A DNA stretch of 32,000 nt, from the NCBI GenBank assembly GCA_045599485.1, contig JAZRWA010000035.1, positions 16,480 through 48,479 of the forward strand, written 5' to 3'. The notes under the pieces were generated by a model. It was given only the letters and a program-made list of their open reading frames with translations, did no database searches and was not told the DNA's origin. Shown here piece by piece: positions 5,690 through 26,644 of the stretch (positions within the stretch are counted from its first letter, which is position 1; each line of letters opens with the position of its first letter). Both the position numbers and the translations under genes were made by a program. Source of the DNA: Clostridia bacterium (lineage in GTDB: Bacteria; Bacillota; Clostridia; Christensenellales; Aristaeellaceae).

Positions 5690-6859
5690 TTAAAATGTCA
5701 GTGAATCCACACGGGGCAGCAGCTCCGCCAGCTGTCCCATATAGTAGGCCGCCAGCCGCTTTCCGTCTTCCGTATGCCCCATCCGGCGGATGGTACGGCG
5801 CATCAAACGCGCATAGCCGATCACGCGCACCTTATCCAGTATTGCACGGTAGGCAGCTTCATCTTTCAGGTCAAAATACTCTTCAAAAATCAAGTGCATC
5901 AGCTCCGCGCAGGTTTCATGAGAAATGCCGAAAAAGGACGTGACCTCCCTGGGGTCCAGCTCGCCGTATCCCTGATAATCGATGTAGATCGCGGCAAACT
6001 CAAACACCGGATGCCCCTGGCTCAGGGTATCCATATCGATCAGCAGAGGCTCCCCATTCTGGAGCATCACATTCTTCACATGGCAATCCCCATGCACCAC
6101 ATGCGTATCCCGGGGTACCGCCTCGATCAGTTGACGCAGCTTCCGATACTGTTCCTGCGGAAGATGGTCCCGCAAAAAATCCGCCCAGTCCAAAGCCGTC
6201 TGCCTTGCATCGGGAAATTCCCCGGGCTTCACCTTGGTGGCATGGATCTTTTTGAGCAGCTCTGTCATCATGTGCGCACATTCCGGCAGCCGATCCGGTT
6301 CCTTTTTGAGGATATCCGCCACCGATCCGGCATTCAGCATTTCAAACACAGAGCCATAGCCGTCTCCGACACGCACCACGTCATAGGGTATGGCCGTCGG
6401 CAGACCCGCCACAAACGCCTTGCGGGCGAGTTCTCTTTCTCTCCGAATCTAAGGCAAGCTGTCGGCATGGCGGTACACCTTAATGACGGTTTCCCCATCC
6501 AGGCGGTATACCGTGCCGTTTGCCCCCTGACCGATCCTCTCACAGCCTTCAATATTCAGCCGGCGATACGCCTTGCTCACCGGGATCATTTCGGTAAAGC
6601 CGGTCATATCCAGGATATCATATACTTCGGCGGAGGCATTGATCATTTTCATTTCCGGATAGTCCTTACGCAGCCGCAGCACCACCCGAAGCCCTGCACT
6701 GGAGATGTACACCAGTTTTTCAAGGTCAAGCACAAGTCCCGGGGCAGCGTTTGCCGCGCACACGGCACGCATTTCCTTTTCCGTGCTGTCTGCGTTGGCA
6801 GAATCGATCCGTCCTTCCGGGAACAGCGTCAGCGCCCCGTCCGCAACCCGATGGTTCAC
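5690..6859 (-). CDS. STAS domain fused to an APH/choline-kinase-fold phosphotransferase domain; one in-frame TAG at 6449..6451
   Basis: Track ORFs 6449..6859 and 5690..6412 share one frame (start coordinates 6859 and 6412 are both 1 mod 3). They are separated only by TAG. The kinase N-lobe (GQGANGTVYRLDGETVIKVY) sits upstream of the TAG, and the rest (AFVAGLPTAIPYD ... HGDCHVKNVML ... LIDMD) sits downstream. GTG start follows a GGGAAGGGAG RBS. True stop is TAA. Confidence 0.75.
6449..6451 (-). other. in-frame TAG codon inside the STAS-kinase CDS
   Basis: Forward cta reads as TAG on the minus strand. Protein context is ...YRHADSLP-TAG-IRRERELARKAF... Confidence 0.9.
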
Positions 6860-6891
6860 CGGCAGTCATCTCCCTTCCCAATCAATCTTTG

Positions 6892-8364
6892 TTACAGCAC
6901 CAGATCGGCCAGCGTCAGCGTATCGGTGAATTTGCTGTCATAGCCCGAACGCATCACAATGGTAATGTATTCCTGACCGTTTTTTCGGAAAGCGGCAATC
7001 AGGCAGTTGCCCGCGCGCGAGGTCGCTCCCGTTTTGATGCCCACACAATCCGCGTCAAAGAATTCGCTTTCCTCCCGCAGGATCACATTGGTGTTTTTCA
7101 GTGTGAGCGCGGTGTTGCCCGTGCCGATCGTCATTTCAGGGGCGCTGCAGATTTCAGACAGTACCGGATCCGCCAGCACTGCTGAAGCGATTCTGCACAG
7201 ATCCTCCACCGTGGTCATCTGCCCATCGTCGTCCAGACCATCCACGTTTTTTACCGTGGTGTGCAGGGCGCCCAGGCTTTGAAGTTTTGCATTCGCCGCA
7301 GCAAGAAAAGCGTTCAGTGCCTCCGTTTCCGAAGCATTCGGGTTTCCGAGCTGCGCCCTTCCGCAAAAAACGCCCAGCACATAGGAGGCATCCGCACCTG
7401 AAGCGATCAAAGACCCCGCCAGCAGCTCCCGCACCGTATAGGTCGACCCCATGGCAATGCCTGCCCTCGAGCAGTCCATCGGCACGCGCAGGATCTCGCG
7501 GCCCACGGTGACCGTTGCATCGGGGGAAACCTCCTCCAACGTCGTCAGCCCCAGCACCAGCTTGATGGTTGAAGCCGGGAAGATGCTTGATTGTTCGTTT
7601 GCAGCAAACAGCACCTTTTCCCCGGTGCGGTCCCACAGCAGGGCATTTTCCGCATTCAGTGAAAAATGCCGCGTCTCACCATTGATTTCAGCCGAATATT
7701 CCTTTCCCATTGACCGGGTCACGATGGCGTTGGCCGACATGAGCCCAATGCCGTAGGTGACCAGCATGATCAAGGAAAGCAGCGGCACTGCCATCTTACC
7801 GCGCCAGCGCTTGGGCAATTCCGGCATCAGCTTATCCCCCAGGGGGGTGTGATCCAGCCGGGTCTTATGCCAGATGACGCACAGTGCGCCGCCCAGCAAA
7901 CCGCTCAGGGTGTTGATGATCACATCGTCAATGTCTGTGACGCGGCCGATAAACATCTGCAGCACTTCCATCGTCGCGCTGATGAGTGCCGTTCGCCACA
8001 GCACGTTCAGCAGGCGACGCCCTGCCTTGACGCGGTCATTCAGCACTGAGAAAAAGCCAAAGGGCACAAACAGAAGCAGATTGCCGATCAGTTCCTTCGG
8101 GTCGGTCATCAGCCGATGAAACGCCTTGAAGGGAATCAGGTTTACACGCGCCGTGGAAAAACGGAACGGACGCAGCATGTAGTTGGGAAACAGGATCAGA
8201 ACAAACAGCCCGCCGATGTACAGTGCGTACAATGCCAGCATGACCTTGTGCACAGTATGCCCTTTTTCAAAAAAGAACTTCCGATACAGAATAAAAAAGA
8301 GCGAAAACAGCACCACGGCCACCAGCACGCCCCAGAAAACCCTTGAAGTGATCAGCATCGGCAT
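6892..8364 (-). CDS. VanZ-like membrane domain fused to a D-alanyl-D-alanine carboxypeptidase (peptidase S11) domain
   Basis: The N-terminal 170 aa are VanZ-like (LIPFKAF..., LLLFVPFGFF, ATMEVLQMFIGRVTDIDDVIINTLSG). The C-terminal part carries the serine-peptidase motifs PASTIKL (SxxK), SGADAS and IKTGAT (KTG). The start may be the second ATG at 8358. Stop is TAA. Confidence 0.75.
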   Translation of the reverse strand: MPMLITSRVFWGVLVAVVLFSLFFILYRKFFFEKGHTVHKVMLALYALYIGGLFVLILFPNYMLRPFRFSTARVNLIPFKAFHRLMTDPKELIGNLLLFVPFGFFSVLNDRVKAGRRLLNVLWRTALISATMEVLQMFIGRVTDIDDVIINTLSGLLGGALCVIWHKTRLDHTPLGDKLMPELPKRWRGKMAVPLLSLIMLVTYGIGLMSANAIVTRSMGKEYSAEINGETRHFSLNAENALLWDRTGEKVLFAANEQSSIFPASTIKLVLGLTTLEEVSPDATVTVGREILRVPMDCSRAGIAMGSTYTVRELLAGSLIASGADASYVLGVFCGRAQLGNPNASETEALNAFLAAANAKLQSLGALHTTVKNVDGLDDDGQMTTVEDLCRIASAVLADPVLSEICSAPEMTIGTGNTALTLKNTNVILREESEFFDADCVGIKTGATSRAGNCLIAAFRKNGQEYITIVMRSGYDSKFTDTLTLADLVL

Positions 8365-9276: not shown

Positions 9277-10206
9277 ATGAATCTGCTTCACTTGAAATAC
9301 GTGGTCTCCATCGCCGAAAACTGCTCGATCAACAAAGCCGCCGAAGAACTGCATGTCGCACAACCCAACTTGAGCAGAGTCGTCCGGGAAATGGAAGCCG
9401 ATCTTGGCATCCAGTTTTTTCACCGTTCCCCCAAGGGCATGCTTCTGACGCCGGACGGTGAATTGTTTATCCGTCAAGCTCGCAATATTCTGGAACAGGT
9501 GGACGCGATGGAAAGCCTGTACAAAGAGAAAAAAGCTGACAAACAGCATTTTTCCATTTCTGTTCCGCGAGCCAGCTACATCTCCGACGCATTTGCCGCT
9601 TTTTCGCGCAAGCTCGGCGAAGGTGACGCGGAAATCTTTTATCAGGAAACCAACTCCTTGCAAGCCATCAAAAACATTCTGGAGGTTGGCTACAATCTGG
9701 GCATCATCCGCTACGCGAGCGCTCATGATAAACACTTCCGGCAGCTATTGGAAGAAAAAGGGCTGCAATGCGAGCTGGTTTCGGAATTCAGATACGTTCT
9801 GGTCATGCACGAGAACAGCCCCCTTGCCGCCCTCGACAACATCCGTTTTTCCGATCTGAAGTCCTGTATTCAAATCGCCCATGCCGATCCCACGGTGCCC
9901 TCCCTGCCGCTTTCCGCTGCCCGGGAGGAAGAACCGCCGCAAACGTCCCGTCACATCTTTGTCTTTGAGCGTGGAAGTCAGCTGGACCTTTTGTCCGAGA
10001 ACCCCGAAACGTTCATGTGGGTGTCTCCCCTGCCGGAGCGACTGCTGCAGCGCTCTCACCTGGTGCAAAGGGAATGCGCCGATCAGCGTCGTATTTACCG
10101 TGATATGCTGATTTACCGTCATGACTATCACCTGACAGAGTTGGACAAAACCTTCCTGACCGACCTGATGCAATCCAAACGCACCTGCATGGGGCAAAAC
10201 AAGTAA
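9277..10206 (+). CDS. LysR-family transcriptional regulator
   Basis: N-terminal wHTH is LLHLKYVVSIAENCSINKAAEELHVAQPNLSRVVREMEADLGIQFFHRSPKG, followed by a substrate-binding-like C-terminal domain. Stop is TAA. Confidence 0.8.
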   Translation: MNLLHLKYVVSIAENCSINKAAEELHVAQPNLSRVVREMEADLGIQFFHRSPKGMLLTPDGELFIRQARNILEQVDAMESLYKEKKADKQHFSISVPRASYISDAFAAFSRKLGEGDAEIFYQETNSLQAIKNILEVGYNLGIIRYASAHDKHFRQLLEEKGLQCELVSEFRYVLVMHENSPLAALDNIRFSDLKSCIQIAHADPTVPSLPLSAAREEEPPQTSRHIFVFERGSQLDLLSENPETFMWVSPLPERLLQRSHLVQRECADQRRIYRDMLIYRHDYHLTELDKTFLTDLMQSKRTCMGQNK

Positions 10207-10221
10207 TCGCCTTCCCTTATC

Positions 10222-10265
10222 AGCCTTGCTGCTGGCTTAACCGACTGCAAGGCTCTTCTTTTTTG
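10222..10265 (+). terminator. rho-independent terminator after the LysR gene
   Basis: Stem pairs agccttgc (10222..10229) with gcaaggct (10247..10254). It is followed by a T-rich tract, tcttcttttttg. Confidence 0.65.
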
Positions 10266-10282
10266 TTCAATTTCGATCTCAT

Positions 10283-10294
10283 ATAATCGATTAT
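10283..10294. promoter_or_regulatory. perfect 12-bp palindrome ATAATCGATTAT overlapping a TATAAT box upstream of adhE
   Basis: The palindrome was read directly from the sequence. TATAAT lies at 10282..10287. Confidence 0.3.
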
Positions 10295-10339
10295 GATATA
10301 ACGGTTATACTTTTTTGGTTATTCCCAAAGAACAGCCAA

Positions 10340-10360
10340 TTCGATATAATCTATATCGAA
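10340..10360. promoter_or_regulatory. perfect inverted repeat TTCGATATA-atc-TATATCGAA overlapping a candidate -10 box (TATAAT 10345..10350) of adhE
   Basis: Arms are 9 bp with a 3-nt spacer, about 60 nt upstream of the adhE ATG. A possible -35, TTCCCA, lies at 10322..10327 with a 17-nt spacer. Confidence 0.4.
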
Positions 10361-10421
10361 AGGAAAGAAGAGCCTTTCAACGCAATGCTTGGGCGAATGT
10401 ACAAGCAAGAGGAGGAACCGT

Positions 10422-13124
10422 ATGGAAACCAAAGCATTTGACATGGTGGACAGCACCGAAGCGCTGGGTGCCGCCATTGCCCGTGTACGCGAGGCACAGC
10501 GCGTTTTCGCAACCTACACGCAGGAGCAGGTGGACCGCATTTTTCTGGCCGCCGCCACCGCTGCCAATCGGGCGCGTATTCCGCTGGCCAAACTGGCCGT
10601 TGAAGAAACCGGCATGGGCGTAGTGGAAGACAAGGTGATCAAAAACCACTATGCCAGTGAATATATTTACAATGCTTACCGCGATACCAAGACCTGCGGT
10701 GTGATCGAAGAGGATAAAGCCTACGGCATCAAGAAGCTCGCTGAGCCCATCGGCGTGGTCGCAGCCGTCATTCCAACGACCAACCCCACCTCCACCGCCA
10801 TTTTCAAGGCGCTGATCTGCCTCAAGACCCGCAACGGCATCATCTTCAGCCCCCATCCCCGTGCCAAGAAAGCCACCATCGCCGCTGCAAAAGTTGTACT
10901 GGATGCTGCGGTCAAGGCCGGCGCTCCGGAGGGCATCATCGGCTGGATCGATGTTCCTTCTCTGGAAATGACCAACATGCTGATGCGGGAAGCGGATATC
11001 ATTCTGGCCACCGGTGGCCCCGGTATGGTCAAGGCGGCTTATTCCAGCGGCAAACCGGCGCTGGGCGTCGGCGCCGGCAATGTGCCCGCCGTGATCGATG
11101 ACAGTGCCAATGTGGTGCTGGCTGTCAACTCCATCATCCATTCCAAGACCTTTGATAACGGCATGATCTGTGCTTCCGAGCAGAGCGTGATCGTGCTGGA
11201 CAGTATTTACGATCAGGTAAAGGCTGAATTTGCCCAAAGAGGCTGCTGGTTCCTGACCGGTGCCGATCTGGACAAGGTGCGCCACACCATTCTGATCAAC
11301 GGTGCCCTGAATGCCAAAATCGTCGGGCAAAGTGCCTGCAAGATCGCAGCGCTGGCCGGCGTCACCGTGCCCGAGGGCACCAAGGTGCTGATCGGTGAAG
11401 TGGAGTCCGTGGAACTGAGTGAAGAATTTGCTCATGAAAAGCTTAGCCCCGTGCTGGCCATGTACCGCGCAAGGGACATTGATGATGCCTTTGCCAAGGC
11501 CGACCGGTTGATTGCCGACGGCGGTTACGGTCACACCGCTTCTCTGTATGCCGATACGCAGAAAAAGCCCGAAGTGCTGGACGCCTTTGCTGCCCGCATG
11601 AAGACCTGCCGTATCGTGGTCAACACTCCCTCCTCGCAGGGTGGTATCGGCGATCTGTACAACTTCAAGATGGCCCCTTCTCTCACCCTCGGCTGCGGCA
11701 GCTGGGGCAGCAACTCCGTATCGGAAAACGTGGGTGTCAAGCACCTGCTGAACATCAAAACCGTGGCTGAAAGGAGAGAAAACATGCTGTGGTTCCGTAC
11801 GCCGGAGAAGGTGTATATCAAAAAGGGCTGCCTGCCGGTGGCGCTGGATGAACTCAAGCACGTTATGGGCAAAAAGAAGGCCTTTATCGTCACCGATTCT
11901 TTCCTTTATCACAATGGAAACACCGCCCCCATCACCAAAAAGCTGGATGAACTGGGCATTCAGCACGTGACCTTCTTTGACGTCGCGCCCGATCCCACCC
12001 TGGCTTGCGCCAAGGCCGGCGCGGAACAGATGCGTCTGTTCCAGCCCGATGTGATCATCGCCCTGGGCGGCGGCAGCGCCATGGACGCGGGCAAGATCAT
12101 GTGGGTGCTGTACGAACATCCCGAGGTCGATTTCCAGGACATGGCCATGCGCTTTATGGATATCCGCAAGCGCGTTTATACCTTCCCCAAGATGGGCGAA
12201 AAAGCCTGTTTTGTCGCCATTCCCACCTCCGCCGGCACCGGCAGTGAAGTAACGCCCTTCGCCGTCATCACCGATGAACAGAGCGGCGTCAAATACCCCC
12301 TTGCCGATTATGCCCTGCTGCCCAACATGGCGATCATCGATACTGATTTCCACATGACCGCCCCCAAGGGGCTGACCGCGGCCAGCGGCATCGATGCCGT
12401 GACCCACGCTTTGGAAGCCTATGCCTCCATGATGGCGACGGATTATACCGACGGTCTGGCCATCAAGGCACTGCAAACGATCTTCGAATATCTGCCTCAG
12501 GCATACGATAACGGCTTGACAGATGTGGAAGCCCGTGAGAAAATGGCTAATGCGGCCACCATGGCCGGCATGGCTTTTGCCAACGCCTTCCTGGGTGTCT
12601 GCCACTCCATGGCGCACAAGCTGGGCGCTTTCCATCACATTCCTCACGGCGTGGCCAACGCTTTGATGATCGAAGAGATACTTCGCTTCAACGCCGCCGA
12701 GGCCCCCGCCAAGATGGGCACCTTCTCCCAGTACGGTCATCCCCACACCCTGCGCCGCTACGCACAGGTCGCCGAAGCGCTGGGCATCAACCAGGGCACC
12801 GACCATGAAAAGCTGGAAGCCCTGATTCAGATGATCAACAATCTGAAGACCTATGTGGGCATCAAGCCCACCATCCGGGATTACGTCCCCGATGAACAGG
12901 ATTTTCTGGTCCGACTGGACGACATGGTGGAGCAGGCCTTTGACGATCAGTGCACCGGCGCAAATCCCCGCTATCCGCTGATGAGCGAGATCAGGCAGAT
13001 GTACCTGAACGCCTATTACGGCGGCAGGCACTTTACCGAGATGTCCAAGCCCACCGAGGCTGACATTGCCGAACCGGGAAATGACGCTGTGAAAAAAGCC
13101 TATCGCCCCGGCCGCAAGCTGTGA
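10422..13124 (+). CDS. adhE: bifunctional acetaldehyde-CoA/alcohol dehydrogenase
   Basis: 900 aa. An N-terminal aldehyde dehydrogenase domain is followed by a C-terminal iron-type alcohol dehydrogenase domain (GGGSAMDAGK, CHSMAHKLGAFHHIPHG). GAGGAGG RBS lies 6 nt before ATG 10422. Stop is TGA. The gene contains no in-frame TAG. Confidence 0.95.
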   Translation: METKAFDMVDSTEALGAAIARVREAQRVFATYTQEQVDRIFLAAATAANRARIPLAKLAVEETGMGVVEDKVIKNHYASEYIYNAYRDTKTCGVIEEDKAYGIKKLAEPIGVVAAVIPTTNPTSTAIFKALICLKTRNGIIFSPHPRAKKATIAAAKVVLDAAVKAGAPEGIIGWIDVPSLEMTNMLMREADIILATGGPGMVKAAYSSGKPALGVGAGNVPAVIDDSANVVLAVNSIIHSKTFDNGMICASEQSVIVLDSIYDQVKAEFAQRGCWFLTGADLDKVRHTILINGALNAKIVGQSACKIAALAGVTVPEGTKVLIGEVESVELSEEFAHEKLSPVLAMYRARDIDDAFAKADRLIADGGYGHTASLYADTQKKPEVLDAFAARMKTCRIVVNTPSSQGGIGDLYNFKMAPSLTLGCGSWGSNSVSENVGVKHLLNIKTVAERRENMLWFRTPEKVYIKKGCLPVALDELKHVMGKKKAFIVTDSFLYHNGNTAPITKKLDELGIQHVTFFDVAPDPTLACAKAGAEQMRLFQPDVIIALGGGSAMDAGKIMWVLYEHPEVDFQDMAMRFMDIRKRVYTFPKMGEKACFVAIPTSAGTGSEVTPFAVITDEQSGVKYPLADYALLPNMAIIDTDFHMTAPKGLTAASGIDAVTHALEAYASMMATDYTDGLAIKALQTIFEYLPQAYDNGLTDVEAREKMANAATMAGMAFANAFLGVCHSMAHKLGAFHHIPHGVANALMIEEILRFNAAEAPAKMGTFSQYGHPHTLRRYAQVAEALGINQGTDHEKLEALIQMINNLKTYVGIKPTIRDYVPDEQDFLVRLDDMVEQAFDDQCTGANPRYPLMSEIRQMYLNAYYGGRHFTEMSKPTEADIAEPGNDAVKKAYRPGRKL

Positions 13125-13140
13125 GAAGGAGGACAAAGAG

Positions 13141-14233: not shown

Positions 14234-15910
14234 ATGCAGGATTGTCTGACTTTAAAAAAATCCAACTGCAAAAACTGCTATAAGTGCATCCGCCACTGCC
14301 CGGTAAAGTCCATCCGCTTTTCCGGCAACCAGGCGCACATCATCGGCAATGAGTGCATCCTTTGCGGGCATTGCTTTGTCGTCTGTCCGCAGAATGCCAA
14401 GGAAGTGGTGGATGAGACCGAGAAGGCAAAGGTGCTCATTCAGAGCGGCGCCCCCGTAGTCGTTTCCCTGGCGCCCTCCTTTGTCGCCAACTATGACGGT
14501 GTGGGCATCGAATCCATGCGGGAAGCGCTGAAAAAGCTGGGCTTCCACGATGTGGAAGAGACCGCTTTGGGCGCCACGCTGGTCAAGCGGGAATACGAGC
14601 GCATCCTGAAGGAAGACAACAGGGATGTCGTCATCTCCTCCTGCTGCCACTCCATCAATCTGCTCATTCAGAAGCATTTCCCCCGGGCGCTGCCTTATCT
14701 TGCCGATGTGCTCTCTCCCATGCAGGCGCACTGCGAGGATATCAAACGCCGTATTCCCGGCGCCAAAACGGTCTTTATCGGCCCCTGCGTAGCCAAAAAA
14801 GACGAGGGCGAATTCTACGAAGGCATCGTCGACGCCGTGCTGACCTATGAAGAGCTGACCAACTGGCTCAAAAAAGAAGGCGTTGAGCTTCAGCCCTCCA
14901 AATAGCCCGAGGAGCACAGCCGTGCCCGTTTCTTCCCCACCACAGGCGGTGTACTGAAGACCATGGCACAGGACGCGCCGGGCTATACCTACATGGCCTT
15001 TGACGGTGTGGAAAACTGTATCGCCGCGCTGAAGGAGATCGAACAGGGCAAGATCCATCACTGCTTCATTGAGATGAGCGCCTGTGTCGGCAGCTGTGCC
15101 GGCGGTCCGGTGATGGAAAAATACGGTCACAGCCCGGTCAAAGATTATCTGGCTGTGGCTCAGTATGCCGGCAAAGAAGACTTTGTGATCGATCAACCGG
15201 AAATGCAAAAGCTGCGCAAGCTCTTTGTCCCCATCGAGCAGCGCGCCGCGATGCCCACTGAGTTTGAGATCCGCGATATTCTGCGGGAGATGGGCAAATT
15301 CAAGCCCGCTCAGGAGCTGAACTGCGGCTCCTGCGGTTACAATACCTGCCGTGAAAAGGCCATTGCCATTTATCAGGGCAAGGCGGAAGCCTCCATGTGC
15401 CTGCCTTACCTGATGGAAAAAGCGGAAAACGTCAGCGACACCATCGCCCGCAACAGCCCGAACGGCATTCTCATGCTCAACGATCAGCTGGAAGTGCAGC
15501 AGATCAACCCCGCCGCCCGCAAGATCCTGAATCTGCGTTCCGAAAGCGCTGTGCTGGGTGATCAGGTTGTCCGCATTCTGGACCCCATCCCCTTCATGAA
15601 GGTCAAAAACACCGGACGCGGTATCTTCAACGAGCGCACCTATCTGGCGGAATACAACTGCACTGTGGAGCAGACCATCGTTCCCGCCGAGGGCGGCCGT
15701 ATGCTGCTGTGCATTATGCGTGACGTCAGTGAGGAAGAGGAAGCCCGTCAGCAGAAGGAAGACATCCGCCGTCAAACGGTCGAAGTGGCTGACAAGGTCG
15801 TCGACAAGCAGATGCGCATCGTGCAGGAAATTGCCAGTCTGTTGGGTGAGACTGCTGCCGAAACCAAGATCGCCCTTTCAAAGCTGAAGGAGTCCATCAA
15901 CAATGAATGA
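14234..15910 (+). CDS. sensory [FeFe]-hydrogenase-like protein with C-terminal PAS domain (HfsB/HydS-like); one in-frame TAG at 14903..14905
   Basis: Track ORFs 14189..14905 and 14963..15910 share one frame (both start coordinates are 2 mod 3) and are joined only by TAG. The N-terminus has 2x[4Fe-4S] motifs (CKNCYKCIRHCP, CILCGHCFVVCP). H-cluster-type motifs SSCCHS and GPCVAKKDE lie before the TAG. RFFPTTGGV and EMSACVGSCAGGP lie after it, followed by a PAS-like segment. Stop is TGA. Confidence 0.8.
14903..14905 (+). other. in-frame TAG codon inside the hydrogenase-like domain
   Basis: Context is ...GVELQPSK-TAG-PEEHSRARFFPTTGGVLKTM... Confidence 0.9.
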
Positions 15911-17072
15911 CCTGACGTGTGATATCGGCTACAAAAGCATCAATCACGCCGGCGAACAGCTTTGCGGTGATCATGTGGAAGTCGTCGAGCAATAGGATGG
16001 TTCTACCGTCATCGTACTGGCAGACGGTCTGGGCAGCGGCGTCAAAGCCAGCATTCTGTCCACCCTGACCAGCAAGATCATTTCCACCATGCTGGCCGCC
16101 GGGCTTTCCATTGAGGAATGTGTGGAAACCATTGCCGCTACGCTGCCTGTCTGCTCCATCCGCGGCGTCGCCTATTCCACCTTCACCATCATCCGCCTGA
16201 TCCGCAATCAGACAGCGGAGCTGATCCAGTACGATAACCCGCAGGTCATCATGCTGCGCAACGGTGAAAACTATGAATATCCCCGCACCGATAGCACCAT
16301 CGGCGGCAAACAGATTTTCCGTTCCCTCATCCGGCTGCAGGAAGACGATGTCTTTATCGCCATGAGCGACGGCTGCCCCCACGCCGGTATCGGCATCGCC
16401 TACAACTTCGGCTGGAAGCGGGAGGATATCATCCCCTTCATGGAAGCCATGAATCTGTGCGGCTATACCGCCAAGAACCTTTCCACCCTGTTGGTGGATA
16501 AATGCAATGAGCTGTATGGCGGCGAGCCCGGGGACGATGCCACCTCCTGTGTGGTCCGTGTCCGCAAACGCGTGCCCATGAATCTGCTTTTCGGCCCGCC
16601 CAGCAACCGCGATGACGGTGACCGCATGATGAGCCTGTTCTTCTCCAAAGAGGGCAAGCACATCGTCTGCGGCGGCACCACCTCCTCCATCGCTGCCAAA
16701 TGGCTGAACAAGCCCCTGAGGGCATCGTTGGACTTCGACAGCGACATCCCGCCCATTGCCTATCTGGAGGGCGTTGATCTGGTCACGGAAGGCGTCATCA
16801 CCATCAACCGCGTGGTGGAATATGCCAAAGATTACACCGGAGACAACCAGTGCTATGAGACCTGGAGCAATGGCAAAGACGGTGCCTGTCTGATCAGCCG
16901 CCTTCTGTTTGAGGAAGCCACCGACATCAACTTTTATGTGGGCAGAGCCGTCAACCCGGCGCATCAGAACCCCAACCTGCCCATCAATTTCAACATCAAG
17001 ATGAATCTGGTGGAAGAATTGTCCCAAGCCCTCAAAAAAATGGGAAAACGAATCAAAGTTAGCTATTTTTAA
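15903..17072 (+). CDS. SpoIIE/PP2C-family serine phosphatase (HfsC-like); one in-frame TAG at 15993..15995
   Basis: ATG 15903 overlaps the hfsB-like stop (ATGAATGA). My translation reads MNDLTCDIGYKSINHAGEQLCGDHVEVVEQ-TAG-DGSTVIVLADGLGSGVKASILSTLTSKIISTMLAAG... It runs into track ORF 16089..17072 in the same frame. PP2C motifs CGDHVEVV (before the TAG) and LADGLGSG (after it) flank the TAG; MSDGCPHAG and DDATSCVV lie further downstream. Stop is TAA. Confidence 0.8.
15993..15995 (+). other. in-frame TAG codon at codon 31 of the PP2C phosphatase
   Basis: Read as caa tag gat. It is in frame with ATG 15903 and with ORF 16089..17072. Confidence 0.9.
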
Positions 17073-18560: not shown

Positions 18561-19628
18561 TTATTCCTCCGTCATCAGCACGGCATCGGACATCTCCACA
18601 ACGCCGTCATATATGTTGTATTTGGGATTGCTCACTGTCAGCACATCGCCAGGCTTCACACCCGCCTCCTCAATGTCAAGGAAATCACCATTGATCTGCA
18701 GACCATACAGGTTGACTTCACCGGTTTCATCCGTCACGAGAGCCAACGAGGGGTTGATGATCTCTTTCACCGTCACGGTCAGCAAGCAGTTGCTGTACAG
18801 GCCTTTCGCCTCCAGCCATTCGCCGATGGTAACCGTCACGGGCGTTTCGCTGTACTCCAGCACCGTATAGCTGCCATCTTCCGTCCAGAGGATCATGCAG
18901 GCTTCCATGCCTTCCGGCACAGTCATGTCATTGATACGGCCGCTGCCTTTCAGGATCACGCCGCAGCCGGCATCCACGATGACATCGCCCTCCACAGCCG
19001 CGCCGTCCGCAAGGGTCATCACACTGCTGAGTTCAAGCACCTTGCCTTCCGGCACCACCAGGTTGCCTTCGATCATACATTCCGCCTGCACCGTCGTATT
19101 TCGCAATCCGTCCGTTGCCAGGGCTTCAGCAACAGCGCTTTCCGTCACATCCATATACAAAAAACGTGTTACCTCCACATCGGGACCAAAGCCCGCCGCG
19201 GGAGCGACCAGTATGCCGGCATTGAAGCAGATGTTGCAGTCATCGCTGACCTCACCCTCACCGATATCCATCACACCGCCGTTCACATAAAACTGGGCGA
19301 TGGCAAATCCCTCTTCAAAGGTATGTACCGTCGTCACCTTACCCTTTACCGTCAGTGTCACACCCTCCGGAATTTCCCAACTCTTTACAAAAAAGCCCTC
19401 ATCCGGGGCGGGGTGGAATACTACATCCGCCAAAATGGTAATGTCCTTGGTCTGCATCACATAGGAATCGGTCACAGTCATGTCCGCGGCAATCTCAATG
19501 GCATCCACCGTCTCGTTCATCAACGCCGCCGACAGCTCCTCCGGGGTGTTCACGATTGCTTTTTCCGCCATCGCGGCAGACGTCAGCACAAGCGTCAATA
19601 CGAACAATGCAATCAGTATTTTCTTCAT
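18561..19628 (-). CDS. secreted hypothetical protein
   Basis: Signal peptide is MKKILIALFVLTLVLTSAAMA. I recognise no family. It is the last gene of the HTH/kinase operon. Stop is TAA. Confidence 0.6.
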   Translation of the reverse strand: MKKILIALFVLTLVLTSAAMAEKAIVNTPEELSAALMNETVDAIEIAADMTVTDSYVMQTKDITILADVVFHPAPDEGFFVKSWEIPEGVTLTVKGKVTTVHTFEEGFAIAQFYVNGGVMDIGEGEVSDDCNICFNAGILVAPAAGFGPDVEVTRFLYMDVTESAVAEALATDGLRNTTVQAECMIEGNLVVPEGKVLELSSVMTLADGAAVEGDVIVDAGCGVILKGSGRINDMTVPEGMEACMILWTEDGSYTVLEYSETPVTVTIGEWLEAKGLYSNCLLTVTVKEIINPSLALVTDETGEVNLYGLQINGDFLDIEEAGVKPGDVLTVSNPKYNIYDGVVEMSDAVLMTEE

Positions 19629-19725
19629 AATCAGATTCCCTTCTCATTTTTCCTTTCGTTTTTTATGGTTCCCTCTCTGTCCCGGGGCAGTGGTCTTTGA
19701 CCCTCCTTTCGCATAAATCCACCGC

Positions 19726-20364
19726 TCACTTTGATTCCATCAGGCGTTCCACCGCTTCACCGCGGCAGAAAAGAAGCGATACATCCTTGAGGCCAACCGA
19801 AGCCAGCAGCTCTTCCGCGTAGTCCGTACCAAAGTTTTCAGCAATTTCCGACGTGCTCAGAAAAGCAGTGGTGTACAGCCGATTGGAGGTCACCAGCATC
19901 AGCATCAGATTATTTTCATAGACCAGCATCACGCAGTTATATCCCTCCATGTCCTGCACTTCATGGGCTTGCGACAAACCGATAGCGTCCATCATCGCAG
20001 GGTATGCCCGGCTGTATTGGCTGTTGATTTGCTGATTCAGTACCGATAGCAGCCCGCTGATATCCGTCTTCATCATCGTACAGAGCACGTCCACCTGCTC
20101 CCCCGGCAGTTCAAACATCACCACCGCCCGGGGATTTTCGGCATCGTCAGCAGCAAACTGCTCGGCGTAGAACCGATACTCCCGGTTGGAAGGCCACTGC
20201 GTGTTGCGCATCTGTTCCTGCATCTGAACCATACCGGATACCGCCGTTTGTACAAGTTGCTTTTGCCTCGCTTCCGGAATTTCTTTTTCCGCCGCCGCGG
20301 CGCTCACAAAAGCCAACAGCAGCACAAACAGCAGTGTGGCCAGCCTTTTCATCGGATTTTTCAT
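19726..20364 (-). CDS. secreted hypothetical protein
   Basis: Signal peptide is MKRLATLLFVLLLAFVSAAAA. It starts 19 nt downstream of the kinase stop. Stop is TGA. Confidence 0.6.
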   Translation of the reverse strand: MKNPMKRLATLLFVLLLAFVSAAAAEKEIPEARQKQLVQTAVSGMVQMQEQMRNTQWPSNREYRFYAEQFAADDAENPRAVVMFELPGEQVDVLCTMMKTDISGLLSVLNQQINSQYSRAYPAMMDAIGLSQAHEVQDMEGYNCVMLVYENNLMLMLVTSNRLYTTAFLSTSEIAENFGTDYAEELLASVGLKDVSLLFCRGEAVERLMESK

Positions 20365-20382
20365 TTTCTTTTCCCCCTTGGT

Positions 20383-22095
20383 TCATTCATACTGCACTTC
20401 AAAAAGCACTTCACCCAACGCTTCCACGTCCCCCCGACGGACGGCATCAATGACCAGTATCTTCAGTTCAGGCAGCCGTTTCAGCGGTGTCAGATCCTTC
20501 ACCTCACAGCCGGACATGCGCAGGTAGGTCAGTCCCGTATGGCGCTCAATGCCCTCCAGGCTTGTGACGCGCGTATGCTCAATGCTCAATCTTTCCAGCC
20601 CCGTCACCCCGATCAGCGTGTCCAGGCTGTCCAGATTCGTCCATCCCATCCGCAGATCGCGGATGCGTTTTGTGCCAAGGTACCGTCCGCTGTCAGTGCG
20701 GTTGGAGATATCCAGCAGTTCCATATCATGAAGCCCTTCCAACCCGACCGCGTTATAAGCAGAGGCGTCACACAAATCCAGATAACGAAGTTCCGGCAGC
20801 GTCAGCAGCGCCGTCACGTCGATCACGGGGTTATCATTCAACCCCACGGAGTGAAGCCTCTTCAGCCCCTTCAGCGGCGTGATGTCGCTGATGCGGTTAT
20901 GCTTGAATTCCACCTTTTCCAATTGGGTCAGTGCGGACAAGGGCGCAATCACCTCGACTTCATTGGCGGCGATCATCACCCTGCGCAGGTTGGGCAGAAG
21001 CGCAACATCCTCCAGCCGCGTGATGGTGCCATGAGACCTGCTGCCTCCCGCATACCAGCAATTAGCCGCCTCATAAAACTCATCCTCATTCATGGCGATC
21101 ACATCACCGAAAACATAAAGCCCCTCGATCTTTTCCAGTTGCTCCCGACTCAGGGCGGTCTCGCTGTCAACGCCAAGCATTTTCCTTACCGCCTGCTCGA
21201 TCACCGGTTCCATGAAGGAGATGGGCCTTGTTCCACCCTGCCGCAGAAACGTCATCCTTCCAAGCAGCAACAGGCAGACCGGCACCGCCGCGATCAAAAG
21301 CAGCGTTCTTGGGAGGATTCTCGGTCTTATCAATGCTTTTTTCACTTCCGCCGCTGAAGAAAAACGATCTTCCGGGGAAAACGCCGTGCATTTTTTGACG
21401 ATTCTTTTTAGCCTCCTGTCGTCAATCCCTTCGTATTCCTCCTGCAGTACACTGCCGGTCAGCATCCACCCCAGTACCATACCCAGCGCGTAGAGATCCG
21501 AACGGCAATCGGTCTGACGGAAGCCGTATTGCTCCGGAGGAGCAAAATGCTCCGTTCCCATCACCCGTGTATCCTTTTCACCGTGGCGATTATAAAAGCG
21601 GGCAATGCCAAAGTCAATCAGCGCGACCGTTCCATCCCCGCGCAGCAGAATATTTTGAGGCTTCACATCCCGGTGGATCAGCGGCGGCGTCTGCCCATGC
21701 AGATACGTCAAAATATCACTCAGCTGCAAGATGATCTCTGTCGCCTTTGCCGGGGAAAAGGTACCGTCTATATCTGCCAACGTTTTCCCTTCAATGTACT
21801 CCCGCAGGATGCACAGTCTTTCGCCGTCCTTCCACACACGCATCACCTTTGGCAGCCCCGGATGCGTAAGCATACGCAGTTTTTCCGCAGGACCCATCTC
21901 ATCGTTCTCCCCCTGCATCAGCTTCAGAATCGCTTTTCCGTCGTTCTTTCGGCTGCGCAGCAAAAGCGTTTCCCCTCTTTCGCTGTGTCCCAGGCATTCC
22001 ATCGCTTCCCAGTCCGCCGCAATTTCCTCCGGCAGCGGGTCCTTGACGCCGGCCAAAGCCTCCTGCAGGGATGCCTTCACATCAAAATCGTTCAT
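20383..22095 (-). CDS. receptor-like Ser/Thr protein kinase: cytoplasmic Hanks kinase, one TM helix, extracytoplasmic leucine-rich-repeat domain
   Basis: Kinase motifs are HRDVKPQNILL, DFGIAR and GTEHFAPPE. The TM segment is LLLIAAVPVCLLLLG. The C-terminal half holds repeated LxxLxLxxN-type units (LKRLHSVGLNDNPVIDVTALLTLPELRYLDLCDA...). Its ATG overlaps the upstream TGA (ATGA). Stop is TGA. Confidence 0.85.
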   Translation of the reverse strand: MNDFDVKASLQEALAGVKDPLPEEIAADWEAMECLGHSERGETLLLRSRKNDGKAILKLMQGENDEMGPAEKLRMLTHPGLPKVMRVWKDGERLCILREYIEGKTLADIDGTFSPAKATEIILQLSDILTYLHGQTPPLIHRDVKPQNILLRGDGTVALIDFGIARFYNRHGEKDTRVMGTEHFAPPEQYGFRQTDCRSDLYALGMVLGWMLTGSVLQEEYEGIDDRRLKRIVKKCTAFSPEDRFSSAAEVKKALIRPRILPRTLLLIAAVPVCLLLLGRMTFLRQGGTRPISFMEPVIEQAVRKMLGVDSETALSREQLEKIEGLYVFGDVIAMNEDEFYEAANCWYAGGSRSHGTITRLEDVALLPNLRRVMIAANEVEVIAPLSALTQLEKVEFKHNRISDITPLKGLKRLHSVGLNDNPVIDVTALLTLPELRYLDLCDASAYNAVGLEGLHDMELLDISNRTDSGRYLGTKRIRDLRMGWTNLDSLDTLIGVTGLERLSIEHTRVTSLEGIERHTGLTYLRMSGCEVKDLTPLKRLPELKILVIDAVRRGDVEALGEVLFEVQYE

Positions 22096-22577
22096 TTGTC
22101 CTTCTCCTGTCCCAAAGGAGTCAGCTCGGCTTCCATCAGCAGATACTGGGTTTCCATCACGGAAAGCCCATGCCCGATGGCATAGATCAGGATCGCCTCC
22201 CGCTTGAGCCGGGCATACAAAGCGGTCTTTCGGGCGATGCGCAAAAGCTCACAGGTCTATGAATAATCCAGTCCGAAGCCAATGGCCAGCTGCAGCACCT
22301 TGTCCCGCGAGGGCGATTTACGCCCGTCAAAGATCTGATATCCAAATACCCGGTCCAGATTGGCACGCTGGATCACCTCGGCCCGTTTCAAGCCCTTTTC
22401 CCGCAGCAGCTGCTCCAGATGCTCCCGCAGCGAAACCTCCTGCAGTGCTTCGGCATGGGTGTTCAGATAACGTTTAAAGTCCCGCGTACGCAAAATACCA
22501 TTGGTCAGTTCATCGGTCGTGAAACGTTTTTTTGTCTTGTCCATATCGGTCTTTTCTGGCACAAACATCACATACAC
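22092..22577 (-). CDS. XRE-type helix-turn-helix regulator; one in-frame TAG at 22257..22259
   Basis: Track ORF 22257..22577 ends at TAG. My translation continues in frame as TCELLRIARKTALYARLKREAILIYAIGHGLSVMETQYLLMEAELTPLGQEKDK, reaching a TGA at 22092..22094 that overlaps the kinase ATG. The start is uncertain, at 22577, 22568 or 22544. Confidence 0.7.
22257..22259 (-). other. in-frame TAG codon in the HTH regulator
   Basis: Context is ...LAIGFGLDYS-TAG-TCELLRIARK... Confidence 0.85.
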
Positions 22578-22630
22578 TTTTCTTTCATCCCGTTTCTGCG
22601 TTCAGTATAGCATAATGCGCATCTGAATTG

Positions 22631-22647
22631 GTATGCTGTCAGCATAC
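22631..22647. promoter_or_regulatory. inverted repeat GTATGCTG-t-CAGCATAC in the HTH/kinase operon leader (candidate autoregulatory operator)
   Basis: Perfect 8-bp arms lie 54..70 nt upstream of the minus-strand start at 22577. A TGcTATACT extended -10-like box lies just downstream on the minus strand. Confidence 0.4.
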
Positions 22648-22672
22648 TTTTTGAACAATTTCGCCAATTTGC

Positions 22673-22710
22673 AAGCAAAACATCCCCGCTCCTTCCGGAT
22701 GGCGGGGATG
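22673..22710 (-). terminator. rho-independent terminator after the 22737..23774 gene
   Basis: Stem pairs catccccgc (22681..22689) with gcggggatg (22702..22710). On the minus strand it is followed by TTTTGCTTGC. Confidence 0.7.
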
Positions 22711-22736
22711 TGTGCTTTGAAACGCTGTTATTCAGT

Positions 22737-23774
22737 TCAGTCTGCCACTGTAATGTGCTCCAGCACGGTATAGAGGAAATCCACATCTGCCGCGGTCAGC
22801 GGATTCGTCTTTTTCACGTAGATGTAAACATATCCGCCGTTGATGACCGCCGCACTGCGAAGCTGATTGTCACCGGTGAAAGGAAAAACAATGTATGGAA
22901 TACCATTGATCTCCTGAATATCATATGTTCCGGAAGCGGACATCACTTCGGCGATTGCGTCTGCCAACGCCTTCAGGTCGGCAGGGCTGAACCTGCGGGA
23001 ATCATCTGAAGCATCGTATTTTTTCTCTTTGGCACGGATATAAACCATGGCATTTTCACCGGTCAAGCCATTTTCATTGAGGCGCCAGATCATCATGTCC
23101 GTGCCCTCGCCCATCCTGAGCGCGCTGTCGATCAGGTCGTACGCATAGCCGCTGCGCTGAACAGACAGGCTGTCGTATGGCATATCCTGATATACGATGT
23201 TATACTCATTTTCAGACAGATCCACCAGCAGCGGCCCATTTTGAAGATAAAATCCACGATCGGTCAGATAGTTTTTCGCCTGCGTGTTTGTCTGCGCGTT
23301 CTCCTGGGCTTGAACAGAAAGGGCGTTCATGATACTGCGGCATGCTGCATCATCGGGATATTTTCCGCTGGTGCTGTCAGTCATCGCCGCTACCAGCAGT
23401 TTTGTTCCGTTCAGCGCCATGACAAAACGGTATTCATATCCCTGCTCGGTGTATCGAAAAGATGCACAGGGGATGCCGGCGGCGATCTCCTCATTTTGAA
23501 AGCCGTCATTCGTTCCGAACATCATCACCGCCAGTGTCTCCAGCACCATGTCCGCCATGCTGTCCAGCCACTACTGTTGATAACCAAAGTCCGTCAGTTC
23601 GTATGTGTTCACAGAAAACATCACATTATCCACGTAATACCAGTTGGAATACACCGAGGTGTTTTCCGGCAGAGCGATCCGGTAGCCAGTGCCCAGATCA
23701 TAAACCGTATCCGCGCAGGCGACGGTCAATAACAGGAGCAAGCTCAAAAGCAAACATAATGCTCTTTTCATCAT
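22737..23774 (-). CDS. secreted/lipoprotein-like hypothetical protein; one in-frame TAG at 23571..23573
   Basis: Track ORFs 23571..23801 and 22737..23558 share one frame (both start coordinates are 2 mod 3). They are joined as ...ELTDFGYQQ-TAG-WLDSMADMVLE... The signal peptide MMKRALCLLLSLLLLLTVAC lies upstream of the TAG, and the mature domain lies downstream. Stop is TGA. Confidence 0.7.
23571..23573 (-). other. in-frame TAG codon in the secreted protein gene
   Basis: Forward cta is in frame with both flanking ORFs. Confidence 0.85.
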
Positions 23775-23797
23775 GGTCGTTACACCTTTCGATTTGT

Positions 23798-26644
23798 TCA
23801 TTTCGTTTCCTCAGACTCTGCCTGTTCCACCAGCATCAGCAGCTTTCGGTTGCCTTCATGCCGCTTCAGAAGCATATTATGCACATTTTTCAGCATGGCA
23901 GAGGCTTTTTCTTTATGTCCCAATGCCGCAAGGCAGCGGGAGGTATAGAATCGGCATTGCAGAACCGAGCCCTCATCCACGTTTTCAAACAGGCTCTGGG
24001 CCTCTGCCAGCAAGCCAATGGCTTCCTCCGGCTTGCCGCACTGCAGAAGTGCCCGGCCACCGGCCAGAAAAGCTTCGCCCTCCAGTTCGGGGTCTGAATT
24101 CACATAGCCGCGGCAGTATGCAATCAGGTTCCTGGCGATCTTTTCGCCCTCTTCAAACTCATCATGATCCATCAGAAGGCGAAGATAGTTGCTATACGCC
24201 CTCACAACAGCTTCAAACCGTTCATCTTTTTCAAGCACATGTTTCAGATGGTCGCTGAGTTCTTTTCGTGTCTGCTGATACTCCCCGCACTTGCTGAGGA
24301 AAAAATGATAAGTGCTGCGGATGGGGGTCACCGTAGGCGAATCATCGGCATAACCACGCTTTTTCATGTTGTCCATCACGCGGCGCATCAGTGGAAGCGT
24401 TTCCGACCACTGACCCATATCCGCCAGCGTATACGCCATGCGGGAATCATTGGCGGCCTCCTGCACCGTACCTGTCAGACAGAGTTTTTCGATCAGCTCC
24501 CGCCCTTGTCGAAGCACTTCCGCCGCGCGCTGCTGATTCTGGTCCACAGCACGCAGCTTGCCGCCAAGAAAGTTGCAGTAATCCACCATACGTTTGTCAT
24601 CGTCGGGCCGCAGCCGTTCAAACAGCATATTCAGCTGTGCAGGTTCGGCATATTTGCCGCCAACCTCCAGCACGTTGAGCAGCAGTGAATAGTTGGTGGT
24701 GCTCAAAAGATCCTTTTCTTCACAGGTGCTCAGCGTTTCCACCGCACCACGATATTGTTCAGGCCGTGATCGCAGGATCGCCCACAGCAGCTGCATGATC
24801 TGATAATCGATCTCATCCACCGCGGTATGCTCATGGGTGTCGAGCCATTTGCGGTGCAGCTTAGGCAGATCATCGGTGATGCTGCCCGTGGGACGGGTCA
24901 TCACGCTTTGTTCAAGCCCGATGATCAGGGAAAGCGCTGTCCGATCCAGATGGGCGGTATAGCGCAGCAGATTTTCGGCCTGCGGTACAAAGCTCTGCGT
25001 CTTTTCAGTCATGGGCTACGCAAACATTTTGTTCAGCTTCTGCCACAGCTTCGGATACTCGTCGCAGCTGCCCGGCTCCTGACGCAGGTTCTATGCAATC
25101 ACGGGATGCATCAGATAACCGTCCTCATTCCATACCAGCCACCCCTCAGTATTGAGGCTGTTCAGCTGAGCGGACAGTTCCTTCTCGCTGTCCGTGATGT
25201 CGCAGGTATATTCCAACAGCTCCGCCGGTTTCCAGCTTCGATAACCCAAAGCCGCGATCAAACGGATCAGCGGACGCAGTTTTCCGGCCGGCAGTACGCG
25301 GTACAAGCCATTTGCAGCAGAGTTCAGTTCAGAGGAGCCAATGAGGTTCATCATGCCAAACTCATCCACATGCCGTCTCAGTTCCTCGATTTTCCAAAAG
25401 CGAGTACAGCACAGGCTGCCCAGCAGCGTCAGCGTCAACGGATGACCGTGTACGCAGTGCACCAATGCCTTCGCCTCTTCGATCTCTTCCTTTTCCAAGG
25501 TGCGGCCCACGCTCAAACTCAGCAAGGCTACCCCCTCCTGCTCTGTCATGGGGGGCACGGTTATCGTTTCCATGCCGTCAAAGGAAGTCATATGGCCTGT
25601 GATCAGAATATCACAATTAAAGCAGGCCAGCAGGTCCAGTCCGGCATCCTCGCGGGTATTGACGTTATCAATGATCAGCAGCGCCCGTCCCTCTTCGGGG
25701 TTTTCCAGCAACGCTTTCACGTTTTTGATACAGTCCGCCCCGGAAAGGCCTGTAAAAGCGGCGGCAAATCCGGCTTCCAGGCTTTTGTCATACTGCACGC
25801 ATGCAATACGGCTGTAGGCAGATCGCCGTTTGAGGATCGCCAGTACCTGACGGGCGAGCTCGGTTTTGCCGCTTCCGTCGATACCGCTCAGATAGACTTT
25901 TCCGCTATGTTCCAGATGGCCTATGACCTGCTGCGGCGTCAGCCCAAGCGCAATATATTTCTACGATGGCAGCGGCGCACGATACAGCACGCAATTGCCT
26001 CCCGTGATCACCGCTGTCTTTTTCAAAAGCTCGGTCACCAGGGAGCAGATCACTTCAAAGGTATTTTCCGGGTCGCGGCGCAGATGATTCAGCTTATCGC
26101 TGTTCATTTCCGACCCATATAAGGCAAACAGCGACAACCAGGCCAGACGGAAGGCATCCGCCACCAGACGACGGCTGCTCTCCTACGGCACGGCGGCACC
26201 AAACGAGCGGATGCTGGTCAGATAATCCCGTACGGGCGCCGCGATAAATACATCCGTTTCTGTACACTCTTTTTCAAAGCTGTTCATATACGCCGCGAAA
26301 GTTGCCGGATGATAACCACGTCCCAGCAAAAAGCGCGCGGCGTTGCGTGTCAATTGTACAAGGCCGGTCTGTGTCAGCGGCAGCTGCTCCCGCATCAGGC
26401 GCGGCAGCGAGTTGGGACCGGTGCGGTTCATCAGGCTGGATTGAACACGGGGATGTGATCCATCGGCGGGAAACAGCGTATTCAATGCAGATTGGGGAAG
26501 CACATCGGTCAGAAGGTCACGCCAAAAGCCCACGAGCGTCAAGCCATCCAGCGCACCGGGCATATAAAGCTCCCGGCGTGCCTGTTTGCTTGTCAGCACG
26601 CGATATATGTTTTTGGGGGTCAGAATCATGTTGGTTTCTGTCAC
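23798..26644 (-). CDS. STAND NTPase: unknown N-terminal domain of about 250 aa, NB-ARC ATPase, C-terminal TPR-like array; four in-frame TAGs
   Basis: Four track ORFs (26183..26725, 25961..26164, 25091..25798, 23798..25012) share one frame, with all start coordinates 1 mod 3. They are separated only by TAG at 26183, 25961, 25091 and 25016. Walker A (GIDGSGKT) lies between track ORFs. Walker B is LLIIDNV and the GxP motif is GHPLTL. The remaining roughly 400 aa are TPR-like helical repeats. GTG 26644 lies 7 nt after a GGAGG RBS. True stop is TGA. Confidence 0.8.
25016..25018 (-). other. in-frame TAG codon (STAND NTPase, linker before the TPR region)
   Basis: Context is ...WQKLNKMFA-TAG-PMTEKTQSF... 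Confidence 0.85.
25091..25093 (-). other. in-frame TAG codon (STAND NTPase, end of the NB-ARC winged-helix region)
   Basis: Context is ...EDGYLMHPVIA-TAG-NLRQEPGS... Confidence 0.85.
25961..25963 (-). other. in-frame TAG codon (STAND NTPase, just upstream of the P-loop)
   Basis: Context is ...VLYRAPLPS-TAG-KYIALGLTPQQVIGHLEHSGKVYLSGIDGSGKT... Confidence 0.9.
26183..26185 (-). other. in-frame TAG codon (STAND NTPase N-terminal domain)
   Basis: Context is ...SIRSFGAAVP-TAG-ESSRRLVADAFRL... Confidence 0.85.

Follow-up and report, generated by a model that had tools for sequence, protein, structure and literature searches.

Stop codon reassignments described to date

The genetic code changes accepted for bacteria all involve UGA (Codetta paper PMC8629427; gTranslate preprint). 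In codes 4 and 25, UGA is read as tryptophan or glycine, a change accompanied by a modified or additional tRNA and the disappearance of one release factor. Here we describe a 32,000 nucleotide (nt) stretch of contig JAZRWA010000035.1 from an uncultured member of the Clostridia, in which six genes carry nine in-frame TAG codons; the whole stretch is referred to as the window. As a candidate bacterial stop codon reassignment it resembles codes 4 and 25, but those concern UGA and release factor 2 (RF2) in small AT-rich genomes or genomes of the candidate phyla radiation, whereas here the codon is UAG, the factor is RF1 and the G + C content of the source lineage is ~54%. Our reading, to which we give a probability of about 0.72, is that in the source organism and its nearest relatives (uncultured rumen and gut Clostridia near Aristaeella, Christensenellaceae R-7 group) UAG has ceased to be a stop and serves as a rare sense codon, most likely for glutamate.

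Codes 30 and 31, found in peritrich ciliates and Blastocrithidia nonstop, likewise read a stop of the UAR box as glutamate, presumably through a mutated tRNA-Glu, and show TAG at positions where homologues have glutamate. However, these are eukaryotic nuclear codes that operate with eRF1 and in which TAA is also reassigned, whereas a bacterium uses RF1 and RF2, and in the window TAA is the stop of 13 genes, with no in-frame occurrence. Code 15 of gut bacteriophages shares with the window the reassignment of TAG alone to a standard amino acid, prokaryotic translation and an animal gut or rumen setting, suppressor tRNAs being the proposed mechanism. That code belongs to phage genomes and specifies glutamine, whereas a conserved chromosomal hydrogenase operon is affected here and the alignments favour glutamate. 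In the archaeal Code 34 (Kivenson et al., 10.1101/2024.09.30.615893), TAG is also a sense codon in a cellular prokaryote, stops are poor in TAG and the distribution is sporadic among close relatives; because table 11 still gives nearly the same coding density, such a code easily escapes notice. Code 34, however, is archaeal, specifies a 22nd amino acid by means of pylTSBCD and is tied to methylamine metabolism, whereas the TAGs of the window have glutamate partners and lie in apparently fermentative Clostridia (AdhE and [FeFe]-hydrogenase genes). A CUA tRNA reads UAG in Escherichia coli amber suppressors (supE) and in C321.deltaA, a recoded strain free of RF1, a factor that becomes dispensable once TAG stops are removed; those are laboratory or engineered situations, whereas the present one is apparently natural, has been maintained between lineages diverged at the species level and shows TAG moving back into genes. 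Genome-wide recoding of TAG, as pyrrolysine, is stated as not seen in bacteria (10.1101/2024.09.30.615893), and no report of bacterial TAG reassignment, including in Aristaeella or related metagenome-assembled genomes (MAGs), was found in the literature searched. The window probably represents a new variant of the bacterial genetic code, with UAG read as glutamate.

In-frame TAG codons in the window

Open reading frames (ORFs) were re-derived with TAA and TGA as sole stops, and genes were called with a simple codon-usage model trained on the clear genes. Over the ~9,760 codons of the called genes, TAG occurs in frame nine times and TAA and TGA not at all. Two sites are on the plus strand and seven on the minus strand: 6449(-), 14903(+), 15993(+), 22257(-), 23571(-), 25016(-), 25091(-), 25961(-) and 26183(-). 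All nine join ORFs lying in the same frame, as had been claimed in the original prediction, and none of the six genes contains a frameshift. The genes are the following:

5690..6859, minus strand: STAS + APH-type kinase, 390 codons; TAG at 6449-6451, codon 137 counted from the GTG start at 6859
14234..15910, plus strand: HydS-like sensory [FeFe]-hydrogenase, 558 amino acids (aa); TAG at 14903-14905, codon 224
15903..17072, plus strand: PP2C / SpoIIE-family phosphatase, 389 aa; TAG at 15993-15995, codon 31
22092..22568, minus strand: XRE / HTH_31-type regulator (HTH gene); TAG at 22257-22259, codon 104; its TGA overlaps the ATG of a Ser/Thr kinase gene with leucine-rich repeats (kinase-LRR gene)
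22737..23801, minus strand: secreted protein with signal peptide and mature domain (SigP); TAG at 23571-23573, codon 77
23798..26629, minus strand: STAND NTPase with NB-ARC and TPR domains, 943 aa; TAGs at 26183 (codon 149), 25961 (codon 223), 25091 (codon 513) and 25016 (codon 538)

The ATGA in which the HTH gene stops and the kinase gene starts is real. Pfam domains cross the TAGs or lie beyond them, as predicted. In the STAS-APH kinase both STAS and APH were found, APH covering residues 108-306 and thus the TAG at about residue 138 of the 391-aa model, and in the HydS-like protein Fe_hyd_lg_C covers residues 74-292, across the TAG at 224. The SpoIIE domain of the PP2C phosphatase (32-221) begins directly after the TAG at residue 31, and in the STAND protein NB-ARC (235-430) lies downstream of two TAGs and TPR (858-919) downstream of all four. 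The secreted protein (22737..23801) had no match in the Pfam search. Public gene calls break the TAG-bearing genes into fragments.

As a sense codon TAG would have a frequency of ~0.9 per 1000 codons, or ~1.3% of glutamate codons if it specifies glutamate, and the trinucleotide is scarce in every frame of the coding sequence (9, 13 and 8 occurrences). The earlier argument that nine nonsense codons of a single type are very unlikely under decay needs a qualification: given the codon usage of the window, TAG makes up ~51% of random single-base nonsense mutations, so the chance of nine out of nine is p ~0.0025 and not (1/3)^9. When the TAGs of the closest relative are added (about 16 of 16), the chance falls to p ~2e-5.

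A recount of the 28 coding sequence (CDS) 3' ends between 421 and 32000 gave the same result as before, 15 at TGA, 13 at TAA and none at TAG. TAG stops are, however, scarce across the family, with 13 of 195 called gene ends in 17 rumen MAGs (L001-L017), six of them in one MAG. The absence of TAG stops from the window is therefore weak evidence alone: the background in the clade is ~3-7% and the TAG-free samples are small (0/28 in the window and 0/17 in the relative L094). It is the in-frame evidence that carries the case for TAG as a sense codon.

Spurious long antisense ORFs lie opposite nearly every real gene of the window, for example 10377-13184(-) facing AdhE; on the real coding strand the G + C content of third codon positions exceeds that of first positions.

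Comparison with the closest relative

The closest relative is represented by L094, a contig of the PGAP-annotated MAG GCA_024404275.1 that is collinear with window positions 2621-24422 at 86-89% nt identity, and by L096, a Logan contig of the same strain that extends the coverage to position 28684. In codon alignments, 15 orthologous genes differ synonymously at 1318 codons and non-synonymously at 521, and neither the window nor L094/L096 has an in-frame TAA or TGA in these genes. In every segment flanking every TAG, divergence is dominated by third codon positions. In the STAS-APH kinase, 28 synonymous and 11 non-synonymous differences lie upstream of the TAG and 52 and 33 downstream; the HydS-like gene has 56 and 15 upstream and 75 and 18 downstream, and the PP2C gene 65 and 2 downstream. 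The STAND gene aligns with that of L096 from end to end (201 synonymous, 54 non-synonymous), with no frameshift and no other stop. Since all segments around each TAG diverge mainly at third codon positions, the TAGs are, by this measure, translated, and the codon comparison shows that purifying selection maintains the reading frame before and after each of them. The only disruption other than TAG in the comparison is a 1-nt deletion in the kinase-LRR gene of L094 (16714-18425), either a true frameshift or an assembly error.

L094/L096 bears five in-frame TAGs of its own and shares three with the window (HTH 104, STAND 223 and STAND 513), and none of the 17 gene ends of L094 is TAG. The HTH TAG is common to five contigs, those of the window, L081, L082, L094 and L096. 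Of these, the Logan contigs L081 and L082 have 84% and 89% nt identity to the window; downstream of the TAG, the HTH genes of the window and L082 differ at 12 codons synonymously and at one non-synonymously. A search with the HTH protein returned a 103-aa fragment identical to that of the window (NCBI, 76,958-bp contig), two 103-aa Logan fragments and full-length homologues. Synonymous divergence on both sides, shared TAGs and independent assemblies together support the original prediction that chromosomal genes here use TAG as a sense codon, which reflects neither decay nor the narrow use for pyrrolysine.

The amino acid at the TAG positions

The codons paired with each TAG in the window and in L094/L096 are as follows:

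STAS-kinase 137: window TAG, L094/L096 GAA
HydS 224: window TAG, L094/L096 CAG
PP2C 31: window TAG, L094/L096 GAA
HTH 104: window TAG, L094/L096 TAG (shared)
SigP 77: window TAG, L094/L096 CAA
STAND 149: window TAG, L094/L096 GAG
STAND 223: window TAG, L094/L096 TAG (shared)
STAND 513: window TAG, L094/L096 TAG (shared)
STAND 538: window TAG, L094/L096 GAG
SpoIIE-HATPase 446: window AAG, L094/L096 TAG
Abhydrolase 147: window GAG, L094/L096 TAG
Abhydrolase 203: window GAG, L094/L096 TAG
STAS-kinase 189: window GAT, L094/L096 TAG
STAND 790: window GAA, L094/L096 TAG

With the three shared TAGs scored by the residue in the columns of distant homologues, these 14 informative positions give glutamate 10 times, glutamine twice and aspartate and lysine once each. 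As glutamate makes up 7% of codons, p is ~2e-9 against all codons, or ~5e-6 when only single-step neighbours of TAG are considered. Some TAGs are conserved between diverged lineages, while others alternate with GAG or GAA. The three shared, older TAGs all stand in columns dominated by glutamate: at HTH 104 it is present in 101 of 113 homologues (glutamine in one), at STAND 513 in five of five distant homologues, and at STAND 223 in four, the fifth having aspartate. Codon 31 of PP2C is GAG or GAA in all 17 close relatives as well as in L094. In 150 family representatives the column of the STAS-APH kinase TAG is more mixed (D43, E26, M13, K11).

Codon inference in the style of Codetta, as suggested in the original prediction, was based on the hmmbuild emission probabilities added up across eight sites of the window and gave a posterior of 0.98 for glutamate, 0.018 for aspartate and ~1e-4 for glutamine. 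Comparable substitutions were seen in another lineage, where two contigs with 97% identity (L088 and L086) show a TAG/GAG difference in a relaxase gene, and a LexA-like gene of L086 has TAG at the glutamate of a PEN motif and at a D/E position. Provided that TAG has a sense meaning at all, we consider glutamate the likely one. For tyrosine, tryptophan, leucine or serine, the neighbouring codons of these amino acids would be expected as partners, and none is found among the 14 positions; for lysine (or pyrrolysine), lysine partners would be expected, and one occurs.

TAG use in wider relatives

GTDB species representatives were scanned with the PP2C protein, which yielded 80 loci. L001-L017 are rumen MAGs (RUG, RGIG) at ~83% nt identity, and the remaining loci are Acutalibacteraceae-like, with ~80% aa identity. 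Synteny among these relatives is kept only over LysR-AdhE-APH-HydS-PP2C-HydA. In L013, a MutS2 encoded beside the hydrogenase operon is 91% identical to MutS2 of Aristaeella lactis, and this one match suggests that the relatives lie near Aristaeella (Aristaeellaceae). In a search with the L013 MutS2 as query, the best 120 matches were all full length and none was linked by accession to GCA_024404275.1; the 90%-identity cluster also lists many 238-aa methyltransferase-like proteins without MutS2 similarity, an apparent clustering artefact.

TAG was absent at the HydS and PP2C sites of the window in the relatives of the 80-locus scan, which have CAG and GAG/GAA instead. However, the ENA contig L097 (24-1691) has an independent TAG at HydS codon 224, the same column as in the window. 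Two more single TAGs were found in the same subclade (L004/L005/L009), at HydA codon 325 of L004 (6861-8282; lysine, AAG, elsewhere) and in a 267-aa gene of L009 (18261-19064), and ~46 genes of this subclade include no TAG stops. Internal stops occur as a background in MAG genes, with one TAA and one TAG in 325 ortholog alignments, or ~1 per 150 genes, and because of this background the single TAGs of L004 and L009 were downgraded as evidence; they were partly reinstated because L097 of the same subclade carries its TAG at HydS 224. The L004/L005/L009 subclade may be a second recoded lineage.

Background nonsense or error is illustrated by L078, a more distant MAG with a TAA inside an otherwise conserved AdhE (alignment position 231). 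Two further gene ends, L083 8385-8993 and L084 377-895, consist of TAG, one codon and TGA ('...RES*S*' and '...MIG*F*'), an arrangement that resembles a back-up stop after a leaky or reassigned TAG.

tRNA and release factor searches

No release-factor motifs were found in the 1.31 Mb of loci examined. For the tRNA, the search pattern was a guessed anticodon arm of the tRNA-Glu type with CUA, modelled on sequences of E. coli and Bacillus and on one tRNA-Glu(CUC) of the family (L042, 11209-11283). Its only match in the JGI metagenomes (L085, 576-620) was discarded: it is a tRNA-Glu-like 3' half with CTA, lies in an AT-rich contig and is not called as a tRNA by ARAGORN. This fragment is probably an attachment-site remnant unrelated to the source lineage.

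Weighing of the reading and its alternatives

A number of observations weigh against UAG as a glutamate codon of the lineage. The data comprise ~32 kb and ~28 kb of one relative, so that 'genome-wide' is an extrapolation. The only tRNA in the window is a tRNA-Arg(CCG) at 28627-28703, with no tRNA(CUA) present, and the scans of the JGI metagenomes and IMG/VR returned nothing relevant, a weak negative as the pattern was guessed. In L006, HydA (11087-12508) ends at TAG exactly where its homologues stop, and in L008 (RUG12338) LysR, the APH kinase and PP2C (2615-3544, 7072-7821 and 9902-11077) stop at TAG at the homologous position. TAG stands opposite CAG or CAA at HydS 224, at SigP 77 (CAG in L081, CAA in L094/L096; HydS 224 is CAG in L094 and most close relatives), at a further in-frame TAG in the SigP gene of L081 (opposite CAG in the window) and in L097; further partners other than glutamate are leucine for the TAG in L083 and the AAG paired with that of L004. 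Finally, among the codons one step away from TAG the commonest is GAG, so that part of the glutamate signal could be mutational and not functional.

Judged by their gene ends, L006 and L008 use the standard code. At ~83% nt identity, they indicate that the change is not clade-wide, and decoding could be ambiguous instead of cleanly reassigned. The TAG pattern itself extends over the 32 kb, in genes of both the core and the island, and is repeated in one collinear relative. The code change would thus be recent or patchy, with some relatives at ~83% nt still stopping at TAG; this patchiness would be compatible with multiple origins or an ambiguous intermediate state.

Ambiguous decoding, in which a moderately efficient amber suppressor tRNA acts beside RF1 and UAG is read partly as glutamate and partly as a stop, as in pyrrolysine-encoding methanogens, survives best among the alternatives, though we hold it to be unlikely. 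It would account for the patchy spread, with true TAG stops in L006 and L008 and single in-frame TAGs in L004, L009 and L097 of the same subclade, and for the TAG-x-TGA gene ends of L083 and L084; ambiguous use of amber codons is documented in archaea (PMC12626013). On the other hand, TAG is the stop of none of 45 gene ends (28 in the window and 17 in L094), four TAGs in one protein would give a very low yield of full-length product under partial suppression, and the sequence downstream of the TAGs is under strong purifying selection.

It is a good deal less likely that TAG is a sense codon for glutamine, read by a supE-like or phage-like tRNA-Gln(CUA), which would amount to code 15 in a bacterium. 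The four pairings with CAG or CAA given above agree with it, CAG-to-TAG is a transition, and glutamine is the sole reported reassignment of TAG in phages and the commonest in eukaryotes. Under this code, however, CAG/TAG exchanges would be synonymous transitions and should dominate, whereas glutamine was observed at two and glutamate at 10 of the 14 positions. The TAGs conserved between lineages stand in glutamate-dominated columns (glutamine in one of 113 in the HTH column), and the profile posterior for glutamine is ~1e-4.

Genome-wide use of TAG for pyrrolysine, as a bacterial counterpart of Code 34, appears highly improbable. Some Firmicutes carry pyl genes. Code 34 is similar in its sporadic distribution and in the depletion of TAG at stops, but it is stated as not observed in bacteria (10.1101/2024.09.30.615893). 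The partners of TAG are specifically glutamate, with lysine at one of 14 positions and the TAGs in glutamate-dominated columns, and no pyl gene or methylamine methyltransferase was found in the 32 kb window or in the loci of relatives examined.

That the six genes are pseudogenes with accumulated nonsense mutations can practically be dismissed: single internal stops do occur in MAG genes, at the background rate given above, and the kinase-LRR gene of L094 may hold one real frameshift, but the six genes show neither the mixed stop types nor the frameshifts nor the relaxed selection of pseudogenes, being interrupted by TAG only, diverging mainly synonymously downstream (non-synonymous rates well below synonymous ones) and keeping TAGs between lineages, while core hydrogenase-operon genes are among those affected and the window is otherwise free of in-frame stops and frameshifts. 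Consensus, assembly or sequencing artefacts are equally negligible; GAG-to-TAG is a G-to-T change, the class made by oxidative damage, but the TAGs are in frame and at first codon positions only, the CAG-derived sites are C-to-T, and the same TAGs recur across samples and assemblers (NCBI MAGs; Logan SRR21150819, SRR28408226 and SRR17543910), the pattern in separate NCBI, ENA and Logan assemblies therefore ruling out an artefact. RNA editing was rejected, as U-to-G editing is not known in bacteria, and a shared cis-acting read-through signal was rejected because the flanks of the nine TAGs have no sequence context in common, in agreement with the original prediction.

Proposed mechanism and origin

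For UAG as a glutamate codon we propose a specific form, which we consider slightly better than an even chance: a rumen Aristaeellaceae-like lineage would have an undescribed bacterial code in which a CUA tRNA derived from tRNA-Glu reads UAG as glutamate and RF1 is lost or disabled. In this scheme, UAG would be read by a dedicated tRNA of glutamate identity, of which the simplest origin would be a duplicated tRNA-Glu(CUC) with a C36-to-A change. Non-discriminating glutamyl-tRNA synthetases tolerate changes at position 36, and the tRNA could be charged by an enzyme of this tolerance. RF1 would be lost, weakened or out-competed, with RF2 terminating at TAA and TGA.

The probable route would be codon capture, in which scarce TAG stops made a suppressor tolerable and TAG then moved back into genes, chiefly by GAG-to-TAG changes. 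The scarcity of TAG stops in the whole clade fits codon capture, and the presence of some TAGs in common and of others in one lineage only agrees with a reassignment before the split of the window and L094 lineages, with TAG since drifting in and out of glutamate positions.

Possible mobile island and signalling module

The region of ~18.5-28.6 kb in the window (18500-28700) has no synteny in any of the 80 relatives and ends beside the tRNA-Arg(CCG) gene. It contains secreted proteins, the HTH and Ser/Thr-kinase-LRR pair and the STAND gene. Elsewhere (L086 3468-5163; L088 224-1000) the same HTH-kinase pair adjoins a MobA/MobL relaxase and a RelB/YafQ toxin-antitoxin pair. The region looks like an integrated mobile island. 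TAGs are present in this region and in the core operon alike.

At 2659-6859 the window carries a module of the partner-switching type, consisting of a SpoIIE phosphatase fused to a HATPase_c_2 kinase, a STAS protein and the STAS-APH kinase. The last of these is the one gene of the module with a TAG in the window, whereas L094 has TAGs in the SpoIIE-HATPase gene and the STAS-APH kinase and two in an abhydrolase gene within the stretch.

Implications for the lineage

If UAG encodes glutamate here, this would be the first natural case of a cellular prokaryote in which the amber codon has passed to a standard amino acid, and a bacterial TAG-to-glutamate code would widen the known range of bacterial code changes. 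Sister species with the standard code at ~83% nt identity would capture the transition in progress and offer a recent natural case in which to test models of codon capture and of an ambiguous intermediate. The lineage may also be a source of a natural RF1-independent amber-decoding tRNA/synthetase pair. An abundant rumen group would at present be mis-annotated, which distorts pangenome, pseudogene and completeness statistics. As a barrier, the code would bear on the host range of phages and mobile elements, TAGs having been seen in relaxase and LexA-like genes of host-associated elements.

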